Assembly (NCBI GenBank): GCA_016186325.1
Contig: JACPLW010000010.1
Location: forward strand, 22,856-86,855
DNA: 64,000 bases
Origin: Parcubacteria group bacterium
Lineage (GTDB): Bacteria; Patescibacteriota; Minisyncoccia; UBA10092
Reading direction: 5' to 3'
Below, in pieces: positions 3,974-56,644 of this stretch. Position 1 is the first letter of the stretch, and every line of letters starts with the position of its first letter. Position numbers and translations under genes: made by a program. The notes beneath the pieces are model-generated. The model was not told the origin of the DNA. It saw nothing but the letters and a program-made list of their open reading frames with translations, and did no database searches.

Positions 3974-4825
3974 ATGTGGATAATAATTCTCATTCTGTTA
4001 CTTTTGGGAGGTTGTACGGTGGGTAAAACTCAGGACCTTTTTGAGGGAGAGTTTGTGATCAAATCCGATGGTATCTATACCTATGCTCATTATTACGGAC
4101 GCCCGGAAAGTAAACGAAGCGTCGTAATCGTAGGCATGAACCACGGCGGCGATAAGGAATACTTTGAGCAAATAGTAAAGCTTCTTGCAGATGTAGAGAT
4201 TGTGTTGTATGAGGGTTTACCGCCCGAACAAGAAGAAACAGCTGAGGAAATTGAAAAAGAGGAACAGGAAGATTTGCTGAATCTTGCGAGTGAAGATGTA
4301 GACGAGGCATTCTATGCTGCTATAAGGAGTTATTTCCGAAAAGCCCATAAGTTTTTACGGCTAGTTGGGGAGGGCAGTGCCTTTGATTATTCAAAGACCG
4401 GTTGGGAGTCTGGAGATGCGGAGTTTTTCGTGAGACTGAAAAATGATGAAAAATTGCAGAAATTTATGGCGGAACGCAGGAATGATCTTGCTCAGTTAAC
4501 ACCAGAGCGGAAAAGAGAAGTGGTAGAATTTGTCAGGAAAGCTTTGAAAAGCATTGAGAGTGGGCAGTTCACAAAAAAGGATTTTGGTGATGGCTTTGTT
4601 TTTTTCTGGTCTGATCAGAAACTCGCGAGCATATTCCTTGATGCGCTTGGCAAACCACGCGACGAGATTGTAATGGAACATTTTGACAGGATCATAAGCG
4701 AGAAAAATCCACACACCATTGGAATTAAGTTTGGAGCGGCACACATCGCTTATCAAAGGAAGTTGTTAGAACAGCACGGATACATCCTGAAGCGTTCGGT
4801 CGAACTAAAAAACATTGCTTTTTGA
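3974..4825 (+). CDS. Lipoprotein, possibly TraB/GumN family
   Basis: Lipobox LLLGGC at the N-terminus. VVIVGMNHGG near the N-terminus and FGAAHIAY near the C-terminus resemble the paired GxxH motifs of the TraB/GumN family. Weak call. Confidence 0.35.
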   Translation: MWIIILILLLLGGCTVGKTQDLFEGEFVIKSDGIYTYAHYYGRPESKRSVVIVGMNHGGDKEYFEQIVKLLADVEIVLYEGLPPEQEETAEEIEKEEQEDLLNLASEDVDEAFYAAIRSYFRKAHKFLRLVGEGSAFDYSKTGWESGDAEFFVRLKNDEKLQKFMAERRNDLAQLTPERKREVVEFVRKALKSIESGQFTKKDFGDGFVFFWSDQKLASIFLDALGKPRDEIVMEHFDRIISEKNPHTIGIKFGAAHIAYQRKLLEQHGYILKRSVELKNIAF

Positions 4826-4876: not shown

Positions 4877-4940
4877 GTGCGCATCCCGCCATAGCGGGAC
4901 GCCGCAAGGCATGGGAGTTCAAATCTCCCCCCGAGCACAA
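4877..4940 (+). other. tRNA-3'-half-like element E1: a GTCCCGC-type hairpin, a canonical T-arm and an acceptor 3' strand, with no D-arm
   Basis: tcccgccatagcggga hairpin, then GGGAGTTCAAATCTCCC (perfect T-arm), then CCGAGCAC-AAAA. No complementary 5' acceptor strand is present. It resembles the element at 22213-22290. Confidence 0.45.
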
Positions 4941-4946
4941 AATAAG

Positions 4947-5014
4947 AATAACCCCGCAGCTCCGACGCATACTGGTCGGAGCCCCGACTACAACGTCGGG
5001 GCTGCGGGGTTATT
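4947..5014. repeat. Family-B double-hairpin palindromic element (CTCCGAC...GTCGGAG / CCCCGAC...GTCGGGG), intergenic copy
   Basis: aataaccccgcagc[tccgacgcatactggtcgga][gccccgactacaacgtcggggc]tgcggggttatt: two hairpins nested inside an outer stem, sitting between convergent genes. Confidence 0.6.
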
Positions 5015-5645: not shown

Positions 5646-6431
5646 TTAATTATCTGTTAGATTTCTAACGGGGTCAACTGTTATTTGTTGATAAGTTTTA
5701 TAGTGCTTGAGGCGATGGAAAAGATAGATAACTAAAGCCGCGGCACCGCCCAAGGTAATACCGGTTAAAAATACGCGCAAAAAATCATTCTCATTAGTTA
5801 TGAGAAAATTGTAAATGCCATGAAGAATTACAGCACTAAAGAGTCCAACAAGAATTAAGCGCGCGTCTTTTTTTACGAAATAATAGACAGCGAAAAAGTA
5901 TCCCGCAATCCCGGATGCCAAGCCGTGCAATGCTACGGCACTTATAAATCGTAAAGATACAAAATTAAGGGTTTCGCTTACGTAGCCGGGCGTGCCAAGC
6001 GGTATGTATGAAAAAATAGCAAAAACATTTTCTATTGCCGCAAAGCCTAAAGCGGCGGTAATGACGTAAATCATGCCATCAACCGGCTCGTCTAAAATCG
6101 GATTTTTGTTTAAAGCAAGATGAACCGCGCCGTATTTTGACGCCTCTTCTACTAGCGGCGCGATAAAAATCAAAAGCAGGATGCTTTCTATAGCAGGCAA
6201 CAACTCAAAGTAACCGAAAAATCTCGACAGAACCATTTCAAGAAAAATTACAAGCGGCGCCAAAGCGACGCCCATTAAAAATATTGTAAAAAGCCAATAT
6301 CGCGGCTCCGGGTGGTCGTCTTCCCTAAGATAAAAAAGTAGCCAAATCAAACTGGGAAGAACGGCTAGAATTATCGTTGGTATTAATGCGGACGGTTCTT
6401 GATTAAGCATTTTATTTCGGCCATTCTTCAA
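5646..6431 (-). CDS. PrsW-family intramembrane metalloprotease
   Basis: Multi-TM protein with the motifs EEASKY (EExxK), FAAIEN (FxxxE) and HGIYN (Hxxx[ND]). The true start may be the ATG near 6410, which would remove the overlap with valS. Confidence 0.55.
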   Translation of the reverse strand: MKNGRNKMLNQEPSALIPTIILAVLPSLIWLLFYLREDDHPEPRYWLFTIFLMGVALAPLVIFLEMVLSRFFGYFELLPAIESILLLIFIAPLVEEASKYGAVHLALNKNPILDEPVDGMIYVITAALGFAAIENVFAIFSYIPLGTPGYVSETLNFVSLRFISAVALHGLASGIAGYFFAVYYFVKKDARLILVGLFSAVILHGIYNFLITNENDFLRVFLTGITLGGAAALVIYLFHRLKHYKTYQQITVDPVRNLTDN

Positions 6432-8616
6432 TCATAATCGGTTTTCCCCGACGCTTTCGGTCGGGGCTCCGACCCCCGCTTTGCGGGGCGTCGGAGTTAT
6501 TCAATATTCCCCAAATTTCTTCGGTTAAAAAAGGAAGAAAGGGGTGGAGCAGTTTCAATAAATCTTCGTGGACTTTTATAAGGACTTCTTGAGTTTGCTG
6601 TCTTGCTTTTTCATCGGCAAGCTCCGACGCTTTGGTCGGAGCTCCGACTTCTTCAGAACGTCGGAGCTGTTTTTTTGCGGTTTCAATATAAATATCGGCG
6701 TATTCGTGCCAGAAAAAATCGTAAAGTTTATGAAGTGCCTGTCCAAACTCGTACTTTTCTATCCTGTTGCCGACTTCAACAATTGTTTTTTTGAGACCAC
6801 TTAAAATTTTCTTATCCGCTTCAGTTAAATTTTGATTTTTGCTTGCCCGCCGAAGCCTTGGCGTAGGCGGGATTTTTGAATTCACGTTTTGTTTTACAAA
6901 ACGCGTGGCGTTCCATATCTTATTACAGAATTTTTTGCCGGTTAACATCGCATCTTCATTAAACCGAATGTCCTGACTGCCGAGATTTTGGTACATCATA
7001 CCGAAGCGAGTAGCGTCAGCACCGTATTTTTCAATTAAATCAATCGGGTCAACACCGGTACCTCGAGATTTAGACATTATTTTACCTTCTTTATTAAGAA
7101 CCGTAGCGTGAATGTGTGTGGTGTTAAAAGGTGATTGGCCTGTAAATTCCAATCCTGAAAAAATCATTTTGGCAATCCAAATATCTCGAATATCTCTTGC
7201 TGAAGTAATAAAGTCGGTAGGATGGTATTTTTTAAGGTCGTTTGTTTTGTTGGGCCAGCCAAGTGTCGCAAAAGGCCAAAGCGCCGAAGAAAACCAAGTA
7301 TCCAAAACATCGGTTTCTCCCTCTAAAGGAATTTTGTGACCCCACCAAAGTTGGCGGGAAATATTCCAGTCCCTTTCATTTTTAAGGCGATTTAATAAAA
7401 CTTTCTCCCATTTTTGCGGGTGAATAATTGTTTTTTTCTTTTTTATTGCGTCAATTGCCAGTTTGGCAAGCTTTTCCATTTTCAAAAACCATTGCTCGGA
7501 CGGCAGAGGTTCAATGACCGAGTTACAGCGGTCGCAGCGGGCGATATTGTGCTCGTAATCTTCTATTTTTTCAATTAACCCGATGGCTTCAAGGTCTTTA
7601 ACTATTTGTTCGCGCGCTTCAGTCACTTTCATTCCCTTATAGCGCAAGCCGGCGTTCTCGTTCATTCGGCCGTGTTCATCAATTATAGTGATTGAAGGTA
7701 AGTTATGACGTTCCGCGATTTCAAAATCCGTTATATCGTGCGCCGGCGTAACCTTAATAATGCCGGTTCCAAATTCCGGGTCCACAGATTTATCTGCTAT
7801 TACCTTTATTTTAATTTTTTTGGTTTTAGCCGGCTGATTATTCGGCAAATCGTTGTCTATAGATTCTATCTCCAAATCTTTTCCCCAGTATTTTTTGTAA
7901 CGTTTGTCATTAGGGTGTACCGCTAAGGCAGTGTCGCCAAGTTTAGTTTCCGGTCTAGTCGTGGCGAGGGTGAGCGGTCCGTATTTGATAAAATAAAGTT
8001 TTGCGTGCTCCGGTATGTAGTCAACCTCTAGATCAGAGATTCCCGTGGCGCAGCGGACGCACCAATTAATAACGCGCTTGCCGCGATAAATCCAACCTTT
8101 TTTATAATAATGATTAAATGCTTCCACGACGGCTTTGGAGTAATCAGAATCCATAGTATATCTGGTTCGTGACCAGTCCGAGGATATGCCCAGCAATTTT
8201 AATTGGTCAAAAATAATATTGCCGTATTTTTCTTTCCACTCTTTAACTTTCTCAACAAATTTTTCCTGGCCTAGATCTTGGCGGCGCAAACCTTCTTTGC
8301 GAAGTTCTTTTTCAACAACATTTTGGGCAGAAATGCCGGCGTGGTCTATGCCCGGAAGCCAGAGCGTTTTAAAGCCCTTCATTCTTTTCATTCTCACCAA
8401 AATATCAACCTCGGTATTTTCCAAGACGTGGCCCATATGGAGCGAGCCGGTGATATTTGGCGGCGCCATCATCACCGAAAATTTCTTTTTTCTTTTTACG
8501 GCTTGCCCCGAAGAAGGCGGCGGCAGTTTATCAGGATTAAAAAAGCCCGATTCTTCCCAGAGCCGGTAAATTTTATCTTCAACTTCTTTTGGGTTATACG
8601 GAGAATCAAAGTTCAT
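6412..8616 (-). CDS. valS: Valyl-tRNA synthetase (class I). The C-terminal domain carries two in-frame palindromic-element insertions
   Basis: PPNITGSLHMGH (HIGH motif) and KIMSKS (KMSKS motif). Its coding sequence contains two family-B palindromic repeat copies (features at 6446-6496 and 6620-6667). Confidence 0.8.
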   Translation of the reverse strand: MNFDSPYNPKEVEDKIYRLWEESGFFNPDKLPPPSSGQAVKRKKKFSVMMAPPNITGSLHMGHVLENTEVDILVRMKRMKGFKTLWLPGIDHAGISAQNVVEKELRKEGLRRQDLGQEKFVEKVKEWKEKYGNIIFDQLKLLGISSDWSRTRYTMDSDYSKAVVEAFNHYYKKGWIYRGKRVINWCVRCATGISDLEVDYIPEHAKLYFIKYGPLTLATTRPETKLGDTALAVHPNDKRYKKYWGKDLEIESIDNDLPNNQPAKTKKIKIKVIADKSVDPEFGTGIIKVTPAHDITDFEIAERHNLPSITIIDEHGRMNENAGLRYKGMKVTEAREQIVKDLEAIGLIEKIEDYEHNIARCDRCNSVIEPLPSEQWFLKMEKLAKLAIDAIKKKKTIIHPQKWEKVLLNRLKNERDWNISRQLWWGHKIPLEGETDVLDTWFSSALWPFATLGWPNKTNDLKKYHPTDFITSARDIRDIWIAKMIFSGLEFTGQSPFNTTHIHATVLNKEGKIMSKSRGTGVDPIDLIEKYGADATRFGMMYQNLGSQDIRFNEDAMLTGKKFCNKIWNATRFVKQNVNSKIPPTPRLRRASKNQNLTEADKKILSGLKKTIVEVGNRIEKYEFGQALHKLYDFFWHEYADIYIETAKKQLRRSEEVGAPTKASELADEKARQQTQEVLIKVHEDLLKLLHPFLPFLTEEIWGILNNSDAPQSGGRSPDRKRRGKPIMIEEWPK
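6446..6496. repeat. Family-B palindromic element inserted in-frame within the valS 3' end
   Basis: ccccgacgctttcggtcggggctccgacccccgctttgcggggcgtcggag. It translates (minus strand) to ...APQSGGRSPDRKRRG.... Confidence 0.6.
6620..6667. repeat. Family-B palindromic element inserted in-frame within valS
   Basis: gctccgacgctttggtcggagctccgacttcttcagaacgtcggagc. It is nearly identical to the intergenic copy at 22435-22484 and translates to ...RRSEEVGAPTKASELAD.... Confidence 0.65.
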
Positions 8617-9788
8617 AGCCTAAGGTTAGCATCTGCGACTATTTTTTTCCATGAATCTTTTTGCGGTTTTTTCTTGAGATAATTAAAATAGCCGGCGGCG
8701 GCAATCATCGCGGCATTGTCGGTGGTGTAAGACAAATCGGGAACAAGCAACGGGATTTTATAGGATGCGATTTTTTTCGCCATTTCTTCGCGCAGTTTTC
8801 TATTGGCGGACACGCCGCCGGCAATCATTACTGATTTTGGATTGAAATTTTTCACCGCTTTAAGCGTTTTAGCGATTAAAACATCAACTATCGCATTCTG
8901 AACTTCAAAAGCCAAAGTCGGTCTGATTTTAGAAATCGGATATTTTTTTATCAAATCATTATACAGATACAAAACTGCGGTTTTAAGTCCTGAAAAAGAA
9001 AAGTTATGATTATCAGAATTTATCATCGGCCGAGGGAGTTTAATTTCGAATTTAGAATTTCGAATTTCGAATTTGTTTGTGATTTGTGATTTGTGATTTG
9101 TGATTTTTGATGCTTCGGTGGCGATAGCGGGACCGCCGGGGTATCCGAGGCCTAGAAGACGCGCCGTTTTATCAAAAGCCTCTCCGGCCGCGTCGTCAAG
9201 TGTTTGGCCTACAATTTTATATTGGCCGTAGTTTCTCATTAAAACCAGCTCAGTGTGCCCGCCGGAAACGATAAGAATTAACGCGGGAAATTCAATTTTT
9301 TTTGAGATTTGTCTCCCTTCGGTAGATCCCCCGTAGGGGGAAGATTTGTCTCCCTTCGGGAGATCCCCCGTAGGGGGAAGATTTGAGATTTTTCCAATTG
9401 GCGGCAGCCAATTGGAATAGATGTGTCCCTCGATATGATTGACGCCTATAATAGGTTTTTGCCACCTATAAGCTGGGGCCCTAGCGAAATTGACTCCGAT
9501 TAAAAGCGACGGCACTAGTCCCGGTCCCCGCGTTACCGCAATCAGGTCAACTTTCTCACTATTGATGTCGGACATCGATAATGCGGCGTTGATTGTGGGG
9601 CCGATTTTTTCAAGATGGGCACGACTAGCGAGATTGGGAACGACTCCCCCGAATTTCTTGTGAATCGCCACCTGGGAATAGGAAACATTTGATAAAACTG
9701 AAAAATAAGGGTTATCAAATCCTCCCTTTGCTTCTATAATCGCCGCGGCAGTGTCGTCGCATGAAGTTTCAATCCCTAGGATATGCAT
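8613..9788 (-). CDS. tsaD: tRNA N6-adenosine threonylcarbamoyltransferase TsaD (Kae1/Gcp family), with low-complexity repeat insertions
   Basis: N-terminal MHILGIETSCDDTAAAI, HIEGH and a C-terminal Gcp-like region. At 391 aa it is longer than typical because of tandem-repeat-encoded inserts. Confidence 0.75.
   Translation of the reverse strand: MHILGIETSCDDTAAAIIEAKGGFDNPYFSVLSNVSYSQVAIHKKFGGVVPNLASRAHLEKIGPTINAALSMSDINSEKVDLIAVTRGPGLVPSLLIGVNFARAPAYRWQKPIIGVNHIEGHIYSNWLPPIGKISNLPPTGDLPKGDKSSPYGGSTEGRQISKKIEFPALILIVSGGHTELVLMRNYGQYKIVGQTLDDAAGEAFDKTARLLGLGYPGGPAIATEASKITNHKSQITNKFEIRNSKFEIKLPRPMINSDNHNFSFSGLKTAVLYLYNDLIKKYPISKIRPTLAFEVQNAIVDVLIAKTLKAVKNFNPKSVMIAGGVSANRKLREEMAKKIASYKIPLLVPDLSYTTDNAAMIAAAGYFNYLKKKPQKDSWKKIVADANLRL
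9044..9112. repeat. Tandem heptanucleotide repeats (aatttcg/gaatttc x about 4, then tgatttg x 4) inside the tsaD coding region
   Basis: Read directly. They encode ...ITNHKSQITNHKSQITNKFEIRNSKFEIK.... Confidence 0.7.
9304..9377. repeat. Family-C element: two tandem 37-bp copies of gatttgtctcccttcgg(g/t)agatcccccgtagggggaa, each a double hairpin, in-frame in tsaD
   Basis: tctcccttcgggaga and tcccccgtaggggga hairpins, encoding ...GDKSSPYGGSTEGRQ.... A third copy lies in mltG at 49512-49548. Confidence 0.7.
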
Positions 9789-9795
9789 ACATTTG

Positions 9796-9870
9796 TAGCG
9801 CCAGCGGGATTTGAACCCGCGTACTCAGCTTGAAAAGCTGATGTCCTGGACCAGGCTAGACGATGGCGCC
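9796..9870 (-). tRNA. tRNA-Glu (anticodon TTC)
   Basis: Minus-strand GGCGCCATCGTCTAGCCTGGTCCAGGACATCAGCTTTTCAAGCTGAGTACGCGGGTTCAAATCCCGCTGGCGCTA. The anticodon loop is TTTTCAA. Confidence 0.75.
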
Positions 9871-10019: not shown

Positions 10020-11873
10020 ATGCCTGAAGAACTTGACCGATCTGATGGGCCGATTAATGTGGAGCAACTCTTATTAGAGCTTCGCGATATTAACCTAAAA
10101 ATTCCCCATGTTAAGCCGACAGAAATTCAAGAGCAGCTTCGTGAGTCGGCGAAAAAATTGCGCGCGAAGTTAGAAGAGCTTTTTAAGAGAATTGAAAACG
10201 ATCATGAAAGGCGAGTTCATCTTACGCAGGCTTTAGAGAGGGCTTCGGCTGAAATTGAAAGACTTACGGCTCCGCCCCTTCCTTATGGTTATGTGGATCG
10301 CATTCACGATGATGGCACGATTGATGTTTTTATTAACAAGGATAATAGAAGGCGCGTTAATGTCTCTCCAGAAGTTAATGTTAAAGAATTGAAAACCGGT
10401 CAGCGGGCGCTCTTAAGTAATATAAACTACACCATTTTAGAAATTGATGAGGAATGGGAAAAGATTGGAGAAGAAGGCAAGGTCTCTGCTCTTCTAGGTG
10501 AAGACATAGTGAGAGTGGTCACTCATCTTGATGAAGTTCATGATGTAATCTTAGCCGCGCCTTTGAGAGAACAAAAAATTCGCGAAGGCGATTCCCTTCT
10601 CATTTTTGGAAATTTTGCTTTTGCTAAGTTACCCAAAGCAGAAACCGATGAGCTTCTGCTTGAAAAAGTGCCCGAAATTGGTTTCGCCCAAATCGGCGGC
10701 TTGAAAAATCAGGTTGAAATACTGCTTGAGGCCATTGAATATCCGGCGCTTTATCCGGAATTGTTCGCGCTTCATAAGCTCAAGCCGACTAAGGGCGTCT
10801 TGCTTTACGGGCCTCCCGGTTGCGGCAAAACACTTTTGGCCAAAGCCGTGGCTAACTTATTGGCGCAGAAGACGCGTAAGAAAATAGGCGATGCAAATAT
10901 CTGTGCTTATTTCATCAATATTAAAGGTCCGGAACTTCTTAATAAGTGGGTTGGCGAAACAGAGAGAAAAATCCGCGAAGTATTCCAGCGTGCCAGAGAA
11001 AAGGCGGTAGAAGGCTCCCCCGTTATTATCTTTTTTGACGAATTTGATTCTCTTTTCAGAACCCGCGGTTCGGGGATTTCTTCCGATATTGAGTCAACTG
11101 TCGTGCCACAGTTTTTATCCATGTTGGATGGCGCTGAGGAGCTTAATAATGTCATTGTTATAGGCGCCTCCAATAGGCAAGACCTAATTGATCCAGCGAT
11201 ACTGCGCCCCGGCCGTTTTGATATCAAGATTAAGGTTGACCGGCCTGATGAACTTGGCGCCAAAGAAATTCTTGGAATTTATGTTACTCCCGATTTGCCT
11301 TGGGGCGAAGATTCCGAAGGCAAGTCGTATGTTGGCCAGAAATTTCATTCGGTTGTTAACCGTTTGCATGGCAATAAACCATATAGCGTTGATTTAAGTA
11401 CGCCGGAACTAGTAGTTGAACACATGATCAAGGTTATTGTTGAATATTTGTATTATGTCGGTCCGCCGATTGCTTGGACTGACAGGCGCGGCAACCAGCA
11501 TGAATACAACACCGAATGCATTGAAATTACTTGGGCCGATGGAGAAAGGAAAATGTTATATGTTAAGGATATTTTGGTTTCCGGTGCCATGATTGAAAGC
11601 ATCGTAAATCGCGTTAAGAAAATAGCCATTAAACGCGCCGTCACTGGTAAAGGAGGCATTAAAATGGTTGATTTTTATACGGCCATAAGAGACGAAATCA
11701 AAGAAAGCAGTGACTTGCCGAATACCAATAATCCTGATGATTGGGCCAAGATCATCGGCCAGCGTTCGGAGAGCGGCCAGCGGATTGTTAATGTCCGCCC
11801 CATTATTGGGACACAGAGGGTGGCTAGTTCCCGGAGTACAGAACATGTTGTTACTACCGGCCAATATTTGTAA
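10020..11873 (+). CDS. mpa: Mpa/ARC-type AAA+ ATPase (proteasome-associated ATPase homolog) ending in the GQYL motif
   Basis: N-terminal coiled coil, Walker A GPPGCGKT, Walker B IIFFDEFD, and a C-terminal ...TTGQYL*. In actinobacterial Mpa the GQYL tail is the 20S proteasome docking motif. Confidence 0.75.
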   Translation: MPEELDRSDGPINVEQLLLELRDINLKIPHVKPTEIQEQLRESAKKLRAKLEELFKRIENDHERRVHLTQALERASAEIERLTAPPLPYGYVDRIHDDGTIDVFINKDNRRRVNVSPEVNVKELKTGQRALLSNINYTILEIDEEWEKIGEEGKVSALLGEDIVRVVTHLDEVHDVILAAPLREQKIREGDSLLIFGNFAFAKLPKAETDELLLEKVPEIGFAQIGGLKNQVEILLEAIEYPALYPELFALHKLKPTKGVLLYGPPGCGKTLLAKAVANLLAQKTRKKIGDANICAYFINIKGPELLNKWVGETERKIREVFQRAREKAVEGSPVIIFFDEFDSLFRTRGSGISSDIESTVVPQFLSMLDGAEELNNVIVIGASNRQDLIDPAILRPGRFDIKIKVDRPDELGAKEILGIYVTPDLPWGEDSEGKSYVGQKFHSVVNRLHGNKPYSVDLSTPELVVEHMIKVIVEYLYYVGPPIAWTDRRGNQHEYNTECIEITWADGERKMLYVKDILVSGAMIESIVNRVKKIAIKRAVTGKGGIKMVDFYTAIRDEIKESSDLPNTNNPDDWAKIIGQRSESGQRIVNVRPIIGTQRVASSRSTEHVVTTGQYL

Positions 11874-11883
11874 TAAAGTAAAC

Positions 11884-11912
11884 ATCCGCGCAAATTGCGC
11901 GGATATTTTATT
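11884..11912 (+). terminator. Rho-independent terminator after mpa
   Basis: atccgcgcaaattgcgcggat followed by attttattt. Confidence 0.55.
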
Positions 11913-11962
11913 TCTGATACCATGTTTTAAGTGATTTGTACTTTTAAAAGAGGAGAAATCAA

Positions 11963-13729
11963 ATGCAGGTCCTTGTTTCAGATATCGACTATTATGATGG
12001 CTACGGAGATTTTTCAGACCTTTTTTATCGATGTTTGCCCAGACGCCGTTTTAACCGGATACGCTATGAGCTTCCTATGGTTTTTGGAAGCGAAACAGAA
12101 TTTGGTTTGACATACAGCAGGGTACTCGATAAAGAAAAGGCAAAATTTTTTCCGGTAGATTCTCCGGAGACAGTTTTTCTCCATATTATTAAGAAAGTTG
12201 CCGAAAAAACAAAAGCCTTTGCGCGCGATCCGGCATCGCCATGGTTAAGAAACGGACTAAATCATTTTGATCGGATCAGCATTGGTAAAATAACCGAAGC
12301 GGCGATTTCAGACGATATTTCCTGTCTTCCCGTTAAGCTTAAAAAAGCAGTTGAAAGAACAGGACTATCGGCTAAAGATTTTTATTTGGGAGAAACAGGA
12401 ATATTTTTAGAAGAAGGCAGCCGTCTTTACATCGACGGTCCGCATTTAGAATCGTCTATCAGTGAATGCCGGGAACCGGGCGAAGTAGTTTGTCATGAAA
12501 AAGCAATGGAGAATATTATTACCGGAGTTTTACCTGAACTGGAAAATGAGATCGGTCGTGAAATTGTTATTCTTAAGGATAATACCGATAGGCACGGCAA
12601 CAGTTATGGCTGTCATACAAACTATCTGCTTATGCTGGAATTTTTCAATCGGCTTTACGTAAAAAACGAATGGAGCGATGCTTGGTTAAGTTTTATTACC
12701 TCCGGCATAATTGTTACCGGCAGCGGTAAGGTCGGCTATGAATGCTATAGCGAGCCGTGCGACTACCAAATTTCTCAAAGAGCCGATCATTTTATGAGAA
12801 TTTTAGGCAGCGGTACGATGTATTTTCGTCCGCTTATCAACTTTAGAGACGAACCGTTGGCCGACAGAGCGAAATACGGCCGTTTTCATGTAATTTTAGA
12901 TGATTCCAATATGGCCGAATGGTCCATTTATCTTAAAATTGGCACTAAAGCGCTGGTTTTAAATATGCTTCAGCATCAATTTTTCGAAGGTGGAAAAACT
13001 ATCAAGTATAAAGAGCTTTTTATAGATAATCCGATTGAATCTCTAAAATTCATTTCCAGGGATTTGACGTGTAAGAAGAAAGTCCTGTTAGCGGACGGCA
13101 GTGAAAAATCAGCTCTTGAAATTCAAGAGGAATGGCTAAGTATTGTTGAAGATTTTTATTCAGGTTCTGATTCTTATCCTTTTTGGATTTCGGATGTTAT
13201 AGCAAAATGGAAATTAACTCTACGGTGGATTAGAGATGATGATGACAATCTTGATTCGGTTTTGGACTGGCGGATTAAACTTTCCCTCATCAAAGGTATA
13301 AAAGAAAAATATGCCAAAAGAGGAATAACTCTTGATTGGCGAGATGGTCGGATTAAAGATTTAGACTGCCTTTACCATAGTTTGGGTCCCAAAGGTCTTT
13401 ACAATTGCGCTTTAAAAGCGGGTCACATTGAAAGAATTGTAACAGATGAACAAATTGAAATAGCTAAAACTGAGCCACCCGAAAACACCAGAGCATGGCT
13501 GCGCGGCCGGTTTATAAGGCACTTTTTGCCACATCTTGTCGATGCCAGCTGGGAGCTCCTGTCTTTTTATATTAAAATCGGTGATTTTGAAACATTGGTG
13601 TCGCTTAAGATGGACCCGCTCTGCAGTACGCGCCATAAGGTGGGCGAGTTGTTTACAGAAACAGACAGTTATGAAAGTTTTTGCAAGAGGTTTCTTTCCA
13701 TGTATTTAAGTGGTAGGAGTCTTTTTTAA
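11963..13729 (+). CDS. Pup ligase/deamidase family protein (PafA/Dop homolog 1; longer form, possibly Dop-like)
   Basis: FGSETEFG (the GIETEYG-like N-terminal motif), GNSYGCHTNYLL, SQRADHF, RPLINFRDEPLADRAKYGRFHVILDDSNMAEWSIYLKIGTKALVL, LYHSLGPKG and PPENTRAWLRGRFI all match conserved PafA/Dop blocks. Strong SD aggag upstream. Confidence 0.75.
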   Translation: MQVLVSDIDYYDGYGDFSDLFYRCLPRRRFNRIRYELPMVFGSETEFGLTYSRVLDKEKAKFFPVDSPETVFLHIIKKVAEKTKAFARDPASPWLRNGLNHFDRISIGKITEAAISDDISCLPVKLKKAVERTGLSAKDFYLGETGIFLEEGSRLYIDGPHLESSISECREPGEVVCHEKAMENIITGVLPELENEIGREIVILKDNTDRHGNSYGCHTNYLLMLEFFNRLYVKNEWSDAWLSFITSGIIVTGSGKVGYECYSEPCDYQISQRADHFMRILGSGTMYFRPLINFRDEPLADRAKYGRFHVILDDSNMAEWSIYLKIGTKALVLNMLQHQFFEGGKTIKYKELFIDNPIESLKFISRDLTCKKKVLLADGSEKSALEIQEEWLSIVEDFYSGSDSYPFWISDVIAKWKLTLRWIRDDDDNLDSVLDWRIKLSLIKGIKEKYAKRGITLDWRDGRIKDLDCLYHSLGPKGLYNCALKAGHIERIVTDEQIEIAKTEPPENTRAWLRGRFIRHFLPHLVDASWELLSFYIKIGDFETLVSLKMDPLCSTRHKVGELFTETDSYESFCKRFLSMYLSGRSLF

Positions 13730-13735
13730 AGTTTT

Positions 13736-13761
13736 AAACCCCTTCGTTTCGAAGGGGTTTT
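13736..13761 (+). terminator. Rho-independent terminator
   Basis: aaaccccttcgtttcgaaggggtttt. Confidence 0.6.
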
Positions 13762-13863
13762 ACGTATAAAAACCAGGATATGGCAATTTTCTTAAAGCTA
13801 CGTTAAGATATAAAAAGTCATTTTTATTCTTTAACAACTTATTAAGATAGGAATGAGAGTGCT

Positions 13864-15360
13864 ATGAGAGATCGAGTCATGGGAGGCGAAATCGAATGGC
13901 TTGGTAACTTTAGGCCCAATCCTAACTGCCGATGGCAGGAAGCCGGGAACCTGTTTGAATCAATTAAAGCATTTCTTTGCAAAAAATATAGTATTAACAA
14001 TTCTGGAGAGTTATTTCTTCCAAACGGCTCTCGTTTTTACCATGAGTCAACGGGTAATCATATTGAGACCACGACCCCCGAATGTGGAAGCGCAAGAGAT
14101 GTCTTAAAATACGAAAAATGGCAAGAGCGCTTTATGTGCCGACTTTCAAAAGAACTGAAGGACAGTCTGGGAGAATTCGTGTTTCAAAAAAAGAACAGCA
14201 GTGATAATTTAGCCGATACCCGCGGCTCTCATGAGAGTTATTTGTCCGATAAAATGTTTAGTGATTTACTGAGTTCTGCTCAAGCAAGATTATATTCTAT
14301 GCCCCCCACTATGGACCCGCGGCTTAATTATCTTATTCTGTTTTTAATAACACGTCAGATTTTTACCGGTAGCGGCGGCGGCATTTTAAGCTGCCAAGAC
14401 AACAGTCGCAACGATTATGTAATTTCTCCTAGGGCTTATTTCATTGAGACGATTTTTAGCTCTTCATCAACCAGCTCGCGGCCGATTATTCACATTCGCA
14501 AAGAAGCGTTAGCCGATGACTCCAAATATTGGCGCAATCATTTTATTTTAGGCGATGCTAATATGGCCGACCTTTCAATCTTTCTTAAATTCGGAACGAC
14601 AAGCGCCGTTTTGGAGATGATCGAGGAAGGTTTTTACGATAAGACATTGAATATGTTTGATCCTCGTGAAGCTGCCAATCTATTTAAAAAAATCTCCGGC
14701 GATTTAACCCTGCGAAACGTGCCAATTCGTTTGGTGGGTGGCGGAGATGAAGGTGTTATAGGAATCCAAAAACGATTCTGCCAAGATTTCAAAAGATACC
14801 TCGGCTATTCCGGTCAAGGCGGAGAAAAATTAGAAATTGCGCAAAGATGGTGGGAGATTTTGGAATGCCTGCAAGGGGACGATGAAAAAGTTTATCGGGA
14901 GTTAGATTACAAGATTAAGTTTAGGCTTTTAAATGACTATATGACGGCAAGGGGTCTTTCTCTTTCTGATAACAAGGTTAGGATGCTCGATCTTGACTAC
15001 CACAGTTCGGATCCGAAAAAAAGCTTTTATTACTTGTTAAAGAATCGTCCGAGTTCTAAATTTGAAAGTTTGGTGAGTGAAAGTAAAATTTTGGAAAGAG
15101 GGGGCCTACCTCCAAATACCAGGGCTAAGTTAAGAGCTCAAATTCAATTGCTTCTTGAAGAATTAGACATGTCTTATAGTTTAAATTGGGATTTGGTGTC
15201 GTTCAAACCCATTGGTTCAGATGTACCTGAAAGAAAATTACACTTACCAGAACCGCGCGTTTCATCATTTGACGGTCTAAATTTTGAAAAAAACTATGAT
15301 GCCATAGATTATCTAAACTCTTTAAAGCCCGGCGCTATTAAAATTCGTAAAGCCCCCTAG
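13864..15360 (+). CDS. Pup ligase/deamidase family protein (PafA/Dop homolog 2; divergent)
   Basis: MGGEIEW, RPIIHIRKEALADDSKYWRNHFILGDANMADLSIFLKFGTTSAVLEMIEEG, LDLDYHSSDP and PPNTRAKLRAQ. Same family as the preceding gene, but the GNSYGCHENY block is replaced by RGSHESYL. Confidence 0.7.
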   Translation: MRDRVMGGEIEWLGNFRPNPNCRWQEAGNLFESIKAFLCKKYSINNSGELFLPNGSRFYHESTGNHIETTTPECGSARDVLKYEKWQERFMCRLSKELKDSLGEFVFQKKNSSDNLADTRGSHESYLSDKMFSDLLSSAQARLYSMPPTMDPRLNYLILFLITRQIFTGSGGGILSCQDNSRNDYVISPRAYFIETIFSSSSTSSRPIIHIRKEALADDSKYWRNHFILGDANMADLSIFLKFGTTSAVLEMIEEGFYDKTLNMFDPREAANLFKKISGDLTLRNVPIRLVGGGDEGVIGIQKRFCQDFKRYLGYSGQGGEKLEIAQRWWEILECLQGDDEKVYRELDYKIKFRLLNDYMTARGLSLSDNKVRMLDLDYHSSDPKKSFYYLLKNRPSSKFESLVSESKILERGGLPPNTRAKLRAQIQLLLEELDMSYSLNWDLVSFKPIGSDVPERKLHLPEPRVSSFDGLNFEKNYDAIDYLNSLKPGAIKIRKAP

Positions 15361-22290: not shown

Positions 22291-22291
22291 G

Positions 22292-22365
22292 CGCGCCCTG
22301 AGGGATTCGAACCCCCGACCCCTTGTTCCGAAGACAAGTGCTCTAATCCGCTGAGCTAAGGGCGC
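22292..22365 (-). tRNA. tRNA-Arg (anticodon TCG), flanked by a 19-bp perfect inverted repeat that extends the acceptor stem
   Basis: Minus-strand GCGCCCTTAGCTCAGCGGATTAGAGCACTTGTCTTCGGAACAAGGGGTCGGGGGTTCGAATCCCTCAGGGCGCG. The flanks cccgcccaaacttttgcgc and gcgcaaaagtttgggcggg are exact reverse complements. Confidence 0.75.
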
Positions 22366-22434
22366 AAAAGTTTGGGCGGGTCAATTTCACCACGAGGACA
22401 AAAACCTGTTGCCGCAGGTGACCGTTCTGTCCAA

Positions 22435-22484
22435 CTCCGACGCTTCTAGGTCGGAGCTCCGACTTTTTACTTAGAACGTCGGAG
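22435..22484. repeat. Family-B palindromic element, intergenic copy
   Basis: ctccgacgcttctaggtcggag ctccgactttttacttagaacgtcggag. It interrupts a degenerate tRNA-like 5' fragment (GCGCCCGTAGCTCAAC...). Confidence 0.6.
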
Positions 22485-22576
22485 TTGAGCTACGGGCGCA
22501 TTAAAATAGATTTATAAAATAACACAAAATTGCTTAAAAGTAAATATCCACACTCACCAATGAGTGTGGATATAAA

Positions 22577-42950: not shown

Positions 42951-43097
42951 TAATGATTTTATATTTTATTCTCTTGCTTTCCTCGTCCCGCCCCAGCGAG
43001 CGGGACTCGGGGATTCGCGCTCGCTCGTCCCGCCAAGGCGGGACACCATGCCCGCTTCGCGCTCATAACCCGCTCGAGAATAAAATATAAAATCATT
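42951..43097. repeat. MITE-like structured element, family A copy 2. It exactly fills the secY-adk intergenic gap
   Basis: Terminal inverted repeats taatgattttatattttattctc and gagaataaaatataaaatcatta. Internal hairpins gtcccgccccagcgagcgggac and gtcccgccaaggcgggac. Confidence 0.6.
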
Positions 43098-43734: not shown

Positions 43735-43872
43735 ATAGTAAATTTATTTTCTGAAGCTTATGAAGCCATTTTAGCATGGTTACCCGCTAAGCGGGGATAA
43801 AATGAGCTTCATCGGACAGTGAGTCCCGCGCTGGCGGGACGAACGCGCGAAGAAAATAATTTTACTATTTTT
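43735..43872. repeat. MITE-like structured element, family A copy 3
   Basis: Terminal inverted repeats atagtaaatttattttct and agaaaataattttactat. The core ttcatcggacagtgagtcccgcgctggcgggacgaacgcgcga is near-identical to copy 1 (146-295). Hairpin 1 shows compensatory changes (cccgctaagcgggg against ccccgcagttgcgggg). Confidence 0.6.
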
Positions 43873-45147: not shown

Positions 45148-45585
45148 ATGAAGATTTTAGCTATTGATTACGGGAAAAAATGGATTGGGCTGGCGATTTC
45201 TGACGATGGGCGCCGGCTGGCTTTTGCTTATAAAACCTTGGAAAATAATTCCAAAACTTTTTCTGTTTTAAATGAAATAATAAAAAAAGAAGAAATTTAT
45301 AAAATAGTTATTGGCTTGCCTTTGAATAAAGAGATGAAACCGACGCAACAAACAACTGAAACGGAAAACTGGGCGCAAGAACTTATTAAAAAAGTTGCAA
45401 CTCCGACGCCTTTGGGTCGGAGCCCCGACCGGAACTCCGACGGTACCGTCGGAGAAAGCGTCGGGGTTGATTTTGAAAATGAAATTTTTACAAGCAAGGC
45501 GGCGGATAAACTCGGAGTAAAAAACCAGCACGCCGCCGCCGCCGCAATTTTTCTTCAGGATTATTTGGATAGAAATAACAAATAA
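45148..45585 (+). CDS. ruvX: Holliday-junction-resolvase-like protein RuvX/YqgF, with an in-frame family-B palindromic insertion
   Basis: MKILAIDYGKKWIGLAISD N-terminal RNase-H-like motif. The internal segment ...PTPLGRSPDRNSDGTVGESVGV... is encoded by the repeat at 45401-45466. Confidence 0.7.
   Translation: MKILAIDYGKKWIGLAISDDGRRLAFAYKTLENNSKTFSVLNEIIKKEEIYKIVIGLPLNKEMKPTQQTTETENWAQELIKKVATPTPLGRSPDRNSDGTVGESVGVDFENEIFTSKAADKLGVKNQHAAAAAIFLQDYLDRNNK
45401..45466. repeat. Family-B palindromic element (nested hairpins) inserted in-frame in ruvX
   Basis: ctccgacgcctttgggtcggag ccccgacc ggaa ctccgacggtaccgtcggag aaag cgtcgggg. Confidence 0.6.
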
Positions 45586-45587
45586 AT

Positions 45588-45743
45588 TATTAAAATTTAA
45601 TATCTTTGTTCTCACGCTTTTCTCGGTTGCCCCAGCGAGGCAACCGAGAGGATTCGCCCTCGCTCTGTCCCGCAAAGCGGGACAACCGTGCCCGCTCGGG
45701 CTCATAACCCCGCTTTGAAAACAAAGATATTAAATTTTAATAA
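45588..45743. repeat. MITE-like structured element, family A copy 4
   Basis: Terminal inverted repeats ttattaaaatttaatatctttgtt and aacaaagatattaaattttaataa. Internal ggttgccccagcgaggcaacc and gtcccgcaaagcgggac. The core is similar to copy 2. Confidence 0.6.
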
Positions 45744-56507: not shown

Positions 56508-56575
56508 TGCGGGCCGGACGGGATTTGAACCCGCGATCTCTGTCGTGACAGGGCAGCGCTTTGAACCGCATAACC
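56508..56575 (-). other. Truncated tRNA 3' fragment (T-arm plus acceptor 3' strand only), related to but distinct from tRNA-Asp
   Basis: GAGATCGCGGGTTCAAATCCCGTCCGGCCCGCA against tRNA-Asp GAGATCGCCGGTTCGAATCCGGTCGCCCGCGCA. The stem positions differ by compensatory changes. No 5' half is present. Confidence 0.5.
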
Positions 56576-56644
56576 AGAAATGAAATGGAATTCGGAGTCG
56601 GCGCTTATCAGAGAGCGTTAAAAGAACTGGAGTTTATTGATTGA
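56573..56644 (+). repeat. 72-bp direct repeat of the 3' end of the 55296-55829 gene (about 94% identical)
   Basis: accagaaatgaaatggaattcggagtcggcgcttatcagagagcgttaaaagaactggagtttattgattga, against the same segment at 55758-55829. Confidence 0.7.

Follow-up and report, generated by a model that had tools for sequence, protein, structure and literature searches.

REP sequences and BIMEs are extragenic repeats with a conserved 5' tetranucleotide of the GTAG type, and their partner, the RAYT protein (TnpA_REP), is a Y1 HUH transposase. Elements of the IS200/IS605 group have hairpin-forming ends and insert in a polar manner 3' of a short target motif, with no target-site duplication.

Rickettsia palindromic elements (RPEs) are given as about 150 bp in length and as ten families in a review (PMC10969869, summarising Ogata et al. 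2000), where intragenic MITEs (ERIC, BOX, Correia, QMITE1) are listed at 100-300 bp. Mitochondria have hairpin repeats of their own, and the accessible part of one account names the GC clusters of yeast var1, the DHEs of Allomyces, the PstI palindromes of Neurospora and the RHEs of sponges (PMC2800124). SegB, a site-specific GIY-YIG endonuclease from the tRNA cluster of phage T4, is described in the accessible text of its report as having a 27 bp site with a conserved tRNA-gene motif, the T-psi-C stem-loop (PMC2330249).

In the 64-kb stretch of DNA analysed here (the window), the valS gene contains two palindromic segments. [quoted passage not shown] Its family is spread across the CPR and also occurs in broken tRNA copies beside a small nuclease gene, which suggests a form of selfish DNA not described before. 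No prior description of such elements in the CPR, or of a link between GIY-YIG and tRNA genes there, was found in the literature covered, most subscription journals falling outside that coverage.

Double-hairpin copies in valS and elsewhere in the window

The valS ORF encodes 734 aa with the Pfam domains tRNA-synt_1 and Anticodon_1, and a protein identical to its product (100%) carries the name valine--tRNA ligase, Parcubacteria group bacterium. The two in-frame double-hairpin elements proposed in a preliminary description of this sequence are indeed present (Table 1); each has a length divisible by 3, and stop codons are absent from both. Element 1 reads CCCCGAC-gctttcg-GTCGGGG CTCCGAC-ccccgctttgcggggc-GTCGGAG, with a nested CCCCGC/GCGGGG hairpin in one of its loops and a TAA directly before it on the sense strand. 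Element 2 reads CTCCGAC-gctttg-GTCGGAG CTCCGAC-ttcttcagaac-GTCGGAG. The stem consensus is C[CT]CCGAC/GTCGG[AG]G, found twice per element with variable loops; this retains the double hairpin first proposed but replaces the separate patterns that had been assigned to its first and second stems. The peptides GRSPD and VGAPT, formerly ascribed to two orientations, represent two reading frames of elements that have the same orientation.

The pattern CTCCGAC-N3-25-GTCGGAG has 8 matches in the window against 0 in 100 dinucleotide-preserving shuffles, in line with the earlier expectation of a motif above chance, and among the 7-bp hairpin stems of the window CTCCGAC ranks first. All copies in the window fold as double hairpins when treated as single-stranded DNA (z-scores of -3.5 to -5.7 relative to shuffles). 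A known RNA family was ruled out: Rfam gave no gathering-level match at any copy, and the sub-threshold matches obtained at E-value level (mir-5408, F6) are generic hairpin matches. The window contains five copies rather than three, the additional ones being a copy in the hsp20 terminator loop and one in ruvX. The remaining three are the two in valS and one in the 5' fragment of a tRNA-Arg gene.

Table 1. Double-hairpin copies in the window and the features that surround them
Feature	Position	Strand	Details
Double-hairpin copy at tip of hsp20 terminator hairpin	4960..5001	.	Host stem 4944-4959/5002-5017
valS (valine-tRNA ligase), host gene	6412..8616	-	Pfam and 100% match
Double-hairpin element 1 in valS	6446..6496	-	51 nt, aa 707-724, NSDAPQSGGRSPDRKRRG
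Double-hairpin element 2 in valS	6622..6666	-	45 nt, aa 651-665, LRRSEEVGAPTKASE
Intact tRNA-Arg(TCG), directly downstream of interrupted fragment	22291..22365	-	
D-loop remainder and decayed tRNA-like spacer, from element to intact tRNA	22366..22434	-	TTGGACAGAAC...
Double-hairpin copy interrupting D loop of tRNA 5' fragment	22435..22484	-	Closest relative of element 2 (86%)
Orphan tRNA 5' fragment, acceptor strand and D stem, abutting the element	22485..22499	-	GCGCCCGTAGCTCAA
ruvX/yqgF, host gene of third in-frame copy	45148..45585	+	Pfam RuvX
Double-hairpin copy in ruvX/yqgF, in frame	45401..45466	+	66 nt, encodes TPTPLGRSPDRNSDGTVGESVGV
Single hairpin of same family, nested in second-hairpin loop of ruvX copy	45435..45454	+	CTCCGAC-ggtacc-GTCGGAG

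The valS segments are insertions, because close orthologs have empty sites. The site of element 2 is empty in the syntenic loci L122 and L123, which read AAA CAG|CTT GCC, and is filled in the window and in L121, whose insert is identical to that of the window (45/45 nt); the site of element 1 is empty in L122. Some 50 other ValS orthologs do not have the insert peptides. The only ortholog that shares the insert peptide (P0018, encoded at L121) also carries the identical palindromic DNA, and no ortholog was found to possess the peptide without the palindrome. In the AlphaFold (AF2) model of ValS, residues 709-723 of element 1 have a pLDDT below 50 and element 2 forms the loop between helices 624-651 and 662-690; both insert peptides are predicted to be loop or disordered segments of the anticodon-binding domain. 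The original suggestion of lineage-specific insertions at loop positions is therefore upheld. Recombination has made valS a mosaic among these lineages, and the flanks are strongly conserved. For the 45 nt shared by the window and L121, independent insertion on separate occasions is therefore inseparable from recombination or common descent, either of which may account for the identical insert.

The copy in the hsp20 terminator likewise has empty counterparts in L122 and L123; in the L122 ortholog the terminator is the same and its loop is empty (CCCCGCAG|TTGCGGGG). RuvX of the window has about 21 extra residues when aligned with the PDB structure 7w89, and insert-free RuvX orthologs are 123-125 aa long. 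At the DNA level the ruvX locus forms a series, being empty in L210, occupied by a simple element in L209 and by a nested one in the window and L211. The filled and empty ruvX sites do not differ by a clean insertion, as two codons are also absent.

The closest relative of element 2 (previously delimited as 6620-6667) is the copy beside tRNA-Arg. Described at first as almost identical and as plainly intergenic, this copy matches element 2 at 44/51 positions (86%), with indels in both loops, which places the two in one subfamily, and it interrupts a tRNA 5' fragment.

Distribution, reading frame and target site of the family

A pattern scan returned at least 120 loci, and among the matches listed approximately 110 of 120 come from named CPR (Patescibacteria) taxa; the taxonomic distribution given here is drawn from this sample of loci. 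A collection of viral contigs yielded just 2 pattern matches, and carriage by phage was rejected on that count. Elements are 40-66 nt long and their conservation is limited to the 7-bp stems, where position 2 covaries (C-G in 148 stems, T-A in 109, mismatched in 15). A motif so short might be thought to arise from chance palindromes, low-complexity coding sequence or faulty assembly. This reading, to which we attach almost no probability, is refuted by the shuffles, by the size of the family and by the empty sites in valS; moreover, the element is seen across many independent assemblies and sources, and the variation between orthologs is ordered.

Copies in long ORFs, defined as having at least 60 aa of ORF on either side, have a length that is a multiple of 3 in 28 of 35 cases, compared with 12 of 43 outside ORFs (Fisher p = 5e-6). 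The in-ORF copies of other CPR genomes occur in each of the three reading phases. Taking length and stop codons together, 80% of in-ORF copies are multiples of 3 and stop-free as against 28% of non-coding copies, a difference expected only if the coding copies are translated. Patescibacteria are unusually rich in introns in their rRNA and tRNA genes (PMC13011429), and the segments might by analogy be excised from the RNA like introns, or from the protein like inteins, leaving ValS unaltered. The bias in length and stop codons argues against excision, as does the size of the elements, which at 40-66 nt is far below that of group I or II introns or inteins; none of the Rfam families matches either, and we consider this explanation very improbable. 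Assuming that the coding copies are translated, a copy would survive within a gene only if it has no stop codon, keeps the frame by its length and lies at a surface loop, and such copies would add disordered loops of 15-22 residues rich in Gly, Ser, Pro and Arg.

The trinucleotide YAR (CAA, CAG, TAA or TAG at the insertion sites) abuts one side of the element in 70 of 100 copies, compared with 10.9% at random positions, and it is already there in all three empty sites compared (valS, hsp20 and ruvX). The asymmetry of the loops relative to the YAR side is modest. Target-site duplications are absent: direct repeats of 4 nt flank 2 of 100 copies and those of 3 nt flank 3 of 100, and the three comparisons of filled with empty sites revealed no duplication other than ambiguous self-complementary bases. 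The hairpin repeat is thus gained and lost at the DNA level, immediately 3' of YAR and without duplication of its target, and it can enter the loops of other hairpins, including copies of its own family. An extension of the palindrome into its flanks was rejected (35% flank complementarity, around 31% being expected by chance).

A stem that is conserved and covarying over very distant CPR classes could instead have been selected by the host as a cis-element, for example as the binding site of a conserved CPR protein, as a stabiliser of mRNA 5' or 3' ends or as a terminator booster. The copy in the hsp20 terminator lengthens the host stem to about -33 kcal/mol, and the copies next to GIY-YIG genes (see below) lie in the 5' leader of that ORF, both of which would suit such a role. 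A positional function does not fit, however, with the use of three reading phases inside unrelated essential genes, with presence and absence at the same site among close relatives (positional conservation is largely absent for valS, ruvX and hsp20), with the nesting of copies in each other or with their concentration in dead tRNA fragments. Host selection is hence an unlikely reason for the copies to persist.

tRNA D-arm fragments and a small GIY-YIG gene

The setting in which the element is found most often begins with a partial tRNA copy whose D arm holds a hairpin pair; directly after it come a gene for a GIY-YIG protein of about 86 aa and then the same tRNA in intact form. The location of a hairpin pair in the D arm of tRNA 5' fragments upstream of a GIY-YIG gene is new. 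In these cassettes the upstream fragment matches the downstream intact tRNA, and its breakpoint is at position 10-12 or 15, the breaks after positions 10 and 15 reading ..TAG|CTCAG and ..TCAR|YGG. Hairpins occupy the fragment in essentially all cassettes having one, and no fragment is uninterrupted beyond position 17. The ORF and the tRNA are bounded by near-identical hairpin modules arranged as direct repeats, which suggests that module and ORF move or persist together.

The association was approached from both sides. ORFs of at least 100 aa from about 110 hairpin-selected loci were clustered all against all, and GIY-YIG was the sole protein family that recurrently adjoined the element; the next-largest clusters were present at no more than 6 of 110 loci and were housekeeping-like, and no recurrent transposase-like family was seen. 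From the protein alone, a metagenome scan with an alignment of 4 GIY-YIG sequences gave 80 loci. Strict hairpins lay within 300 nt upstream of the gene in 49 of 78 of these and loose ones in 65 of 78, where the density of hairpins in the rest of these loci would predict about 3, and a tRNA gene on the same strand followed within 120 nt downstream in 65 of 71. Around 12 of the 78 genes had neither hairpins nor a tRNA fragment, so that the hairpins are tied no less closely to the D-arm fragment, which is dispensable, than to the ORF.

The protein is 84-89 aa long and matches PF01541 (E = 1e-13 to 2e-14), with a weaker match to T5orf172. Its catalytic domain takes up residues 3-72, and no separate DNA-binding domain was recognisable. 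The tRNA genes next to it, whose 5' fragments are duplicated, cover at least 10 amino-acid specificities and 19 anticodons. All named matches among the best 120 listed members of the subfamily are from CPR organisms, and many of the contigs are just 0.5-1.5 kb long.

Deletion of the hairpins in silico restored no tRNA in 161 clusters, and in 357 wider clusters it led only to overlapping tRNA calls with poor acceptors. An insertion into a functional tRNA was accordingly rejected; the interrupted copies are pseudogenes. Such copies also occur with no ORF, in the window and at loci L004, L007, L009 and L078, as well as downstream of intact tRNAs. At L134 a dead tRNA copy has the hairpins in its anticodon loop. 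A tblastn search with the GIY-YIG protein detected no such gene in the 64-kb window, the spacer between element and tRNA-Arg included.

These arrangements leave it tentative but quite conceivable that the GIY-YIG protein drives the spread of the hairpins. It would cut D-arm-like YAR sites and so spread the hairpin module, much in the manner of RAYT with REPs and SegB with the T4 tRNA genes, and the valS, ruvX and terminator copies would be off-target, non-autonomous derivatives. With somewhat greater reserve, we suggest that the double hairpin is a cis-acting substrate of the small GIY-YIG protein and that the two together would make up a class of mobile element new to bacteria. The autonomous unit would lodge in a tRNA gene, break its D arm and keep an adjacent intact tRNA copy, while shedding MITE-like solo hairpin pairs that would insert 3' of YAR throughout the genome, in-frame sites in essential genes included.

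The hairpin pair might also be an independent repeat, mobile or generated by repair, that prefers YAR and D-arm targets and is linked to GIY-YIG only indirectly; we hold this to be possible rather than probable. The tRNA 5' fragment beside a GIY-YIG gene would then be the only preferred target that can be hit without killing a tRNA, and mobility would be due to a different enzyme or to template switching at hairpins while DNA is replicated or repaired. An indirect link accords with GIY-YIG genes that are free of both fragment and hairpin, with the ORF-less interrupted copies and those 3' of intact tRNAs, with a window holding five copies and no GIY-YIG gene, and with the hit in the anticodon loop at L134. 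It is less easily reconciled with the clustering, in which no other candidate enzyme recurs, with the occupation of essentially every cassette fragment, or with the near-identical modules that flank the ORF as direct repeats.

Comparison with described elements

The likeness to RPEs that was initially pointed out is partly retained. Both are palindromic and occur in a reduced-genome symbiont or parasite lineage with many in-frame copies in unrelated housekeeping genes, where they contribute short peptides at fold-compatible positions. In-frame palindromic insertion at permissive positions of unrelated genes is seen here in valS (twice), in ruvX and in 35 ORF copies of the CPR. Membership in the RPE family does not stand, however, since the CPR elements are 40-66 nt long, compared with ~100-150 bp for RPEs, and belong to another phylum; the RPE consensus families of Rickettsia are set apart here on length and on the description of its host. 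The best reading is that the elements are RPE-like in behaviour and are not RPE family members. To our knowledge, neither a YAR flank nor nesting nor an association with tRNA D-arm fragments and GIY-YIG has been reported for RPEs. Beyond the preliminary description, the analysis adds the CPR-wide distribution, a YAR flank on one side and the connection of the element with tRNA D-arm fragments and GIY-YIG.

The elements resemble REP sequences and RAYT in being short, GC-rich, imperfect palindromes that are often paired and dispersed in many copies, in having a small gene of the nuclease type bounded by repeat copies and in the large excess of solo repeats over this gene. They differ in that the partner in the CPR is GIY-YIG, no Y1 RAYT gene flanked by repeats having appeared in the clustering of about 110 hairpin loci, and in that the repeats are direct repeats in tRNA fragments that also enter coding sequence. 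Many CPR copies are intragenic, and their conserved flank is a one-sided YAR and not GTAG. As in IS200/IS605, insertion takes place 3' of a short motif without target duplication, but the CPR element pairs two near-identical hairpins symmetrically, whereas IS200/IS605 has distinct left and right ends, and neither TnpA (Y1) nor TnpB recurred near the elements in the same clustering. MITEs resemble them as small, non-autonomous repeats with occasional in-frame fusions. MITEs require IS-matching terminal inverted repeats and target-site duplications, however, and neither was found for the CPR elements; flanking direct repeats have the low frequency given above and no parent IS was found.

SegB resembles the CPR protein in having its GIY-YIG gene among tRNA genes, and in the CPR it is the conserved D arm that holds the breakpoints. 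The CPR protein of about 86 aa is a putative nuclease by domain match, whereas the activity of SegB has been demonstrated, and the accessible text on segB makes no mention of hairpin repeats or partial tRNA duplications (PMC2330249). The product of the partner gene, known from other genomes, has the catalytic domain of a GIY-YIG homing endonuclease but no recognisable separate DNA-binding domain. The mitochondrial repeats, as far as the available excerpt describes them, are similarly short, GC-rich, at times double hairpins of AT-rich reduced genomes, vary in their presence among close relatives, and lie between genes and sometimes in protein or rRNA genes; the PstI palindromes of Neurospora flank tRNA genes. 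They are organellar and unrelated in sequence, and an in-frame bias, a YAR flank or a GIY-YIG cassette is not reported in that excerpt (PMC2800124).

If the link to GIY-YIG is causal, it would represent a mechanism of mobility outside the known transposase families and would explain why decayed, hairpin-interrupted tRNA copies are found beside live tRNA genes. The CPR would then possess, confined to it, a GIY-YIG counterpart of the REP-RAYT system and a steady supply of new surface loops. At least 4,100 clusters (90% identity) are annotated just as 'GIY-YIG nuclease family protein', and the D-arm link offers them a testable role. The minimal genomes of the CPR are assumed to be strongly streamlined, yet throughout the radiation they carry what are probably selfish hairpins inside essential genes (valS, ruvX and many others). 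These elements offer a concrete source at the DNA level for at least some of the short, lineage-specific inserts of ValS orthologs, and such inserts affect orthology calling and structure prediction, and perhaps also assembly. ValS orthologs in the clade range from 684 to 792 aa, and inserts recur at the same alignment columns.

Palindromic elements and their filled and empty sites

The window belongs to a metagenome-assembled genome of Parcubacteria/Azambacteria-like type (G+C content 41%). For its ValS, NCBI has a 100% identical protein from a 'Parcubacteria group bacterium', and the closest named relatives are Candidatus Azambacteria. Five copies of an element are present, each built of two adjoining hairpins whose stems are 7 bp long (C[CT]CCGAC/GTCGG[AG]G) and whose loops vary. 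Two of these lie in frame within valS, as the preliminary description had proposed. Its expectation that the motif exceeds chance was likewise borne out: CTCCGAC is the commonest 7-bp hairpin stem of the window, and the strict motif has 8 matches, compared with none in 100 dinucleotide-preserving shuffles. Folded as single-stranded DNA, every copy adopts the double hairpin or an alternative nested form (z-scores -3.5 to -5.7); for no copy do more than 2 of 200 shuffles fold as well. The nearest relative of the 6622 copy is indeed the 22435 copy, but "almost identical" was too strong, since the two agree at 44/51 positions and both loops contain indels.

Coordinates of elements and associated features in the window
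Feature	Position	Strand	Remarks
valS	6412..8616	minus	734-aa ORF; Pfam tRNA-synt_1 and Anticodon_1
valS element	6446-6496		51 nt, stop-free; encodes NSDAPQSGGRSPDRKRRG, aa 707-724
valS element	6622-6666		45 nt, stop-free; encodes LRRSEEVGAPTKASE, aa 651-665
Element within hsp20 terminator loop	4960-5001
Element in tRNA-fragment layout	22435-22484	minus
Element in ruvX/yqgF	45401-45466		in frame; third hairpin nested in second loop
tRNA-Arg(TCG), intact	22365..22291	minus
tsaD	8613-9788	minus	391 aa, vs 350 aa in L122
GTCCCGC-N-GCGGGAC repeats	230-290, 42985-43070, 43810-43870, 45655-45720

The valS segments are lineage-specific insertions, as had been suspected: most of 60 aligned ValS homologs, typically of ~685 aa, have neither. 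At the DNA level we compared two relatives with conserved synteny (tsaD-valS-prsW-hsp20), L122 (Azambacteria, GCA_030650355.1) and L123. The 6622 site is empty in both (AAA CAG/CTT GCC and AGA CAA/CTG GCT, respectively; slash, junction), and the 45 nt of the window are placed exactly between the flanking codons. The 6446 site is empty in L122, and occupied by differing short inserts in L123 and in a further relative, L121. L121 (ValS homolog P0018) carries the same 45 nt as the 6622 element (45/45) at the same codon boundary. In 30-codon windows of valS, nucleotide identity of our sequence to L121 and L122 varies from 0.42 to 0.96, and the closer relative alternates along the gene; a codon alignment including L123 resolves into identity blocks, for example 0.93 to L121 where L122 gives 0.74, with the reverse elsewhere. 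This indicates that valS, an essential gene, is a recombination mosaic among Azambacteria-like lineages, and because of this the 45-nt insert common to the window and L121 may be due to exchange, to descent with precise loss or to repeated insertion.

Protein positions were assigned by alignment to solved structures and from an AlphaFold model (mean pLDDT 86). The anticipated loop positions were found: in the anticodon-binding domain, the 651-665 insert lies within the loop joining helices 624-651 and 662-690, and the 707-724 insert matches a segment of pLDDT<50 (709-723) located after helix 695-707.

The element at the tip of the hsp20 terminator hairpin provides a second filled/empty pair, the empty form in L122 being AACCCCGCAG/TTGCGGGGTT. 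Orthologs of ruvX form a graded series from empty through simple to nested: those of 123-125 aa have no insert (L210), one clade carries the double hairpin in its simple form (L209, 137 aa), in the window it is joined by a nested single hairpin, and L211 has this arrangement with a nested second double hairpin. Compared with PDB 7w89, the insert gives the window RuvX ~21 additional residues.

Insertion target and distribution in Patescibacteria

A scan of GTDB (one genome per species) for the double-hairpin pattern gave at least 120 loci. Among those listed, ~110 carry Patescibacteria names, spread over many classes (Paceibacteria, Wolfe-, Taylor-, Nomura-, Kaiser-, Uhr-, Doudna-, Komeili- and Peribacteria, and records labelled Saccharibacteria), the remainder being mostly high-GC chance matches; a viral collection yielded only 2 matches. 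Stems are identical across classes while loops vary freely. The search pattern left the outer arms free, and among the matches listed stem position 2 covaries (C-G 148, T-A 109, mismatched 15). The element is dyad-symmetric, the first loop starting with G and the second ending with C.

One flank shows a preference for a trinucleotide CAA, CAG, TAA or TAG (YAR), which abuts 70 of 100 non-redundant copies among the matches listed, compared with 10.9% of random positions, and all five window copies. The breakdown is CAA 30, CAG 25, TAA 18 and TAG 7. Copies set in the order YAR-HP1-HP2 have a longer and more variable first loop and a short second loop of the CRAAGC/TGAAAC type. YAR was already there in all three empty sites and is thus part of the target, not of the element; no target-site duplication was found at element copies. 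We conclude that the element is a DNA-level repeat, gained and lost, which lands 3' of YAR without duplication and can nest within hairpin loops.

Where at least 60 codons of open frame lie on both sides ("in ORF"), 28 of 35 copies are multiples of 3 nt, versus 12 of 43 outside ORFs (Fisher p = 5e-6, matches listed); intra-ORF copies among these matches use all three reading phases. Copies in long ORFs are thus mostly multiples of 3 nt, and those of ValS sit at predicted loops. Such a length bias is what selection on translated inserts would yield, and it speaks against their excision from RNA or protein. We infer that the element is read through and translated, with a neutral or nearly neutral effect on the protein.

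In one genome, Candidatus Taylorbacteria RIFCSPLOWO2_12_FULL_43_20, a longer, conserved intergenic repeat with flanks of the ATTCGTAT type has the hairpin pair as its core and occurs in many near-identical copies, including at least 20 near-identical 40-nt double hairpins (loci L027, L035, L037, L048, L052, L062, L063, L068, L085, L102 and L119). This composite repeat looks like a recent burst in a single genome.

A GIY-YIG gene and tRNA fragments

All ORFs of at least 100 aa from hairpin loci were clustered to find recurrent neighbours. The only family recurring beside the element is an 84-89-aa GIY-YIG protein (Pfam PF01541). The hairpins precede its start codon by <100 nt and its stop codon is followed by an intact tRNA gene, in the order 5'-end copy of the same tRNA, hairpins, next D-arm bases, ATG. 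The 22435 copy, previously described as intergenic, proved to have this layout without an ORF (GCGCCCGTAGCTCAA, element, TTGGACAGAAC, ~55 nt, tRNA-Arg(TCG)). No GIY-YIG homolog was found within the 64-kb window.

As an independent test, 80 metagenome loci were chosen by the GIY-YIG protein alone. Hairpins occur within 300 nt upstream in 49 of 78 (strict) or 65 of 78 (loose), mostly at -40 to -90, where ~3 loci would be expected from hairpin density elsewhere in the same loci. A same-strand tRNA (Arg, Thr, Phe, Ile, Val, Met, Lys, Asn, Ala or His) lies within 120 nt downstream in 65 of 71, and the upstream fragment matches it. The fragment always breaks after position 10-12 (..TAG/CTCAG) or 15 (..TCAR/YGG), both of which are YAR sites. 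Direct repeats of a near-identical fragment-plus-hairpin module often flank the ORF, or ORF and tRNA, and further decayed, 5'-truncated tRNA copies with hairpins lie downstream of the live tRNA. About 12 of 78 genes have neither fragment nor hairpins. Insertion of the hairpin into a functional tRNA was considered and rejected, since removing the hairpins never restored a convincing tRNA. At 90% identity the subfamily divides into at least 4,143 clusters; of the best 120 of these, organism-named members are all from the Patescibacteria radiation (CPR), and the sole annotation is 'GIY-YIG nuclease family protein'.

We tentatively propose, at somewhat less than even confidence, that the GIY-YIG protein cleaves YAR sites of the D-arm type, with the hairpin module as its substrate or footprint; intragenic copies would then be off-target, non-autonomous derivatives. 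The main rival explanation is that the hairpins are mobile by other means and just have a preference for D-arm sequence; next to GIY-YIG genes, the dispensable fragment would then be the only safe site that has it. The nuclease model fits the observation that the valS 6622 copy is closest to the window's tRNA-fragment copy.

A different small GIY-YIG gene (82 aa) lies just upstream of tsaD in L122 (8620-8868), undetected by tblastn with the cassette-type protein; the matching place in the window holds tRNA-Glu (9795-9870). At 56518-56576 (minus), ~440 nt from tRNA-Asp(GTC), a borderline Rfam tRNA match (29.1 bits, model positions 8-63) lacks the 5' acceptor strand but keeps a good T arm. This is a 5'-truncated tRNA copy, like the decayed copies by live tRNAs in GIY-YIG loci; no hairpin is evident there.

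Known systems and other repeats

The likeness to Rickettsia palindromic elements (RPE) asserted in the preliminary description holds for behaviour but not for membership, from which the element is set apart by size and host only. REP-RAYT systems share repeats around a small nuclease-type gene, and IS200/IS605 share polar insertion 3' of a short motif without duplication, but the enzyme of neither recurs near our element. T4 SegB is also a GIY-YIG gene among tRNA genes, and is described as recognising a conserved tRNA motif (PMC2330249). Mitochondrial GC clusters and double-hairpin elements, as described in PMC2800124, share features with our element, here without their enzymes. CPR go unmentioned in a 2024 review of MITEs in prokaryotes (PMC10969869), and a 2026 study of the tRNA introns of Patescibacteria mentions neither palindromes, hairpins nor GIY-YIG (PMC13011429). 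No earlier description was found in full-text literature, whose coverage is incomplete so that absence is no proof; that the element is a new class seems to us less likely than not.

Other in-frame repeats occur in the same genes. At 6817-6888 (ValS aa ~578-601) a GC-rich hairpin, ATCCCGCC-tacgccaaggcttc-GGCGGGCA, encodes KIPPTPRLRRASKN and matches a third low-confidence AlphaFold segment (583-593); at this alignment position L123 has PPTGDLPQGDK and L121 another insert. In tsaD a tandemly duplicated 37-nt unit (9291-9392, encoding LPPTGDLPKGDKSSPYGGSTEGRQ) consists of two other hairpins, TCCCCC-tac-GGGGGA and TCTCCC-gaa-GGGAGA. The peptide PPTGDLP.GDK, common to this repeat and L123 ValS, looks like the mark of a second in-frame hairpin family. 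AT-rich tandem repeats in tsaD (9021-9104; (ATCACAA)n, (AAATTCG)n) encode NHKSQITNKFEIRNSKFEI in frame, and their peptide FEIRNSKFE is also inserted in ValS homolog P0025. Across the ValS alignment (P0001-P0060) short lineage-specific inserts recur in many related CPR proteins at columns ~281, 533, 621, 776, 868, 903 and 949, among them PLAPRQARGDN, PASAKASAGK, SPSGRSPKGR and, at column 533, a Cys-rich block of 39-65 aa. These hot spots appear to be common to several element families.

The intergenic GC-rich GTCCCGC-N-GCGGGAC repeats form a separate palindromic family. It has two subtypes with two copies of each, and conservation extends over 40-60 nt of flank. At ~4880-4945 (plus), in the stretch from ORF 3974-4825 to the hsp20 terminator, a TCCCGC-cata-GCGGGA hairpin precedes a tRNA-like 3' end, GGGAGTTCAAATCTCCC CCCGAGCACA, called by neither ARAGORN nor Rfam; L122 and L123 share its T-arm-like sequence, likewise downstream of hsp20, and it may be a divergent tmRNA or tRNA-like gene. 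Finally, a pupylation-type gene set lies at 10020-15360 (plus; L122 2801-8389), comprising an AAA ATPase of proteasomal type that has OB domains and two Dop/PafA-like proteins of the Pup-ligase family; a called Pup gene is also present in L122.
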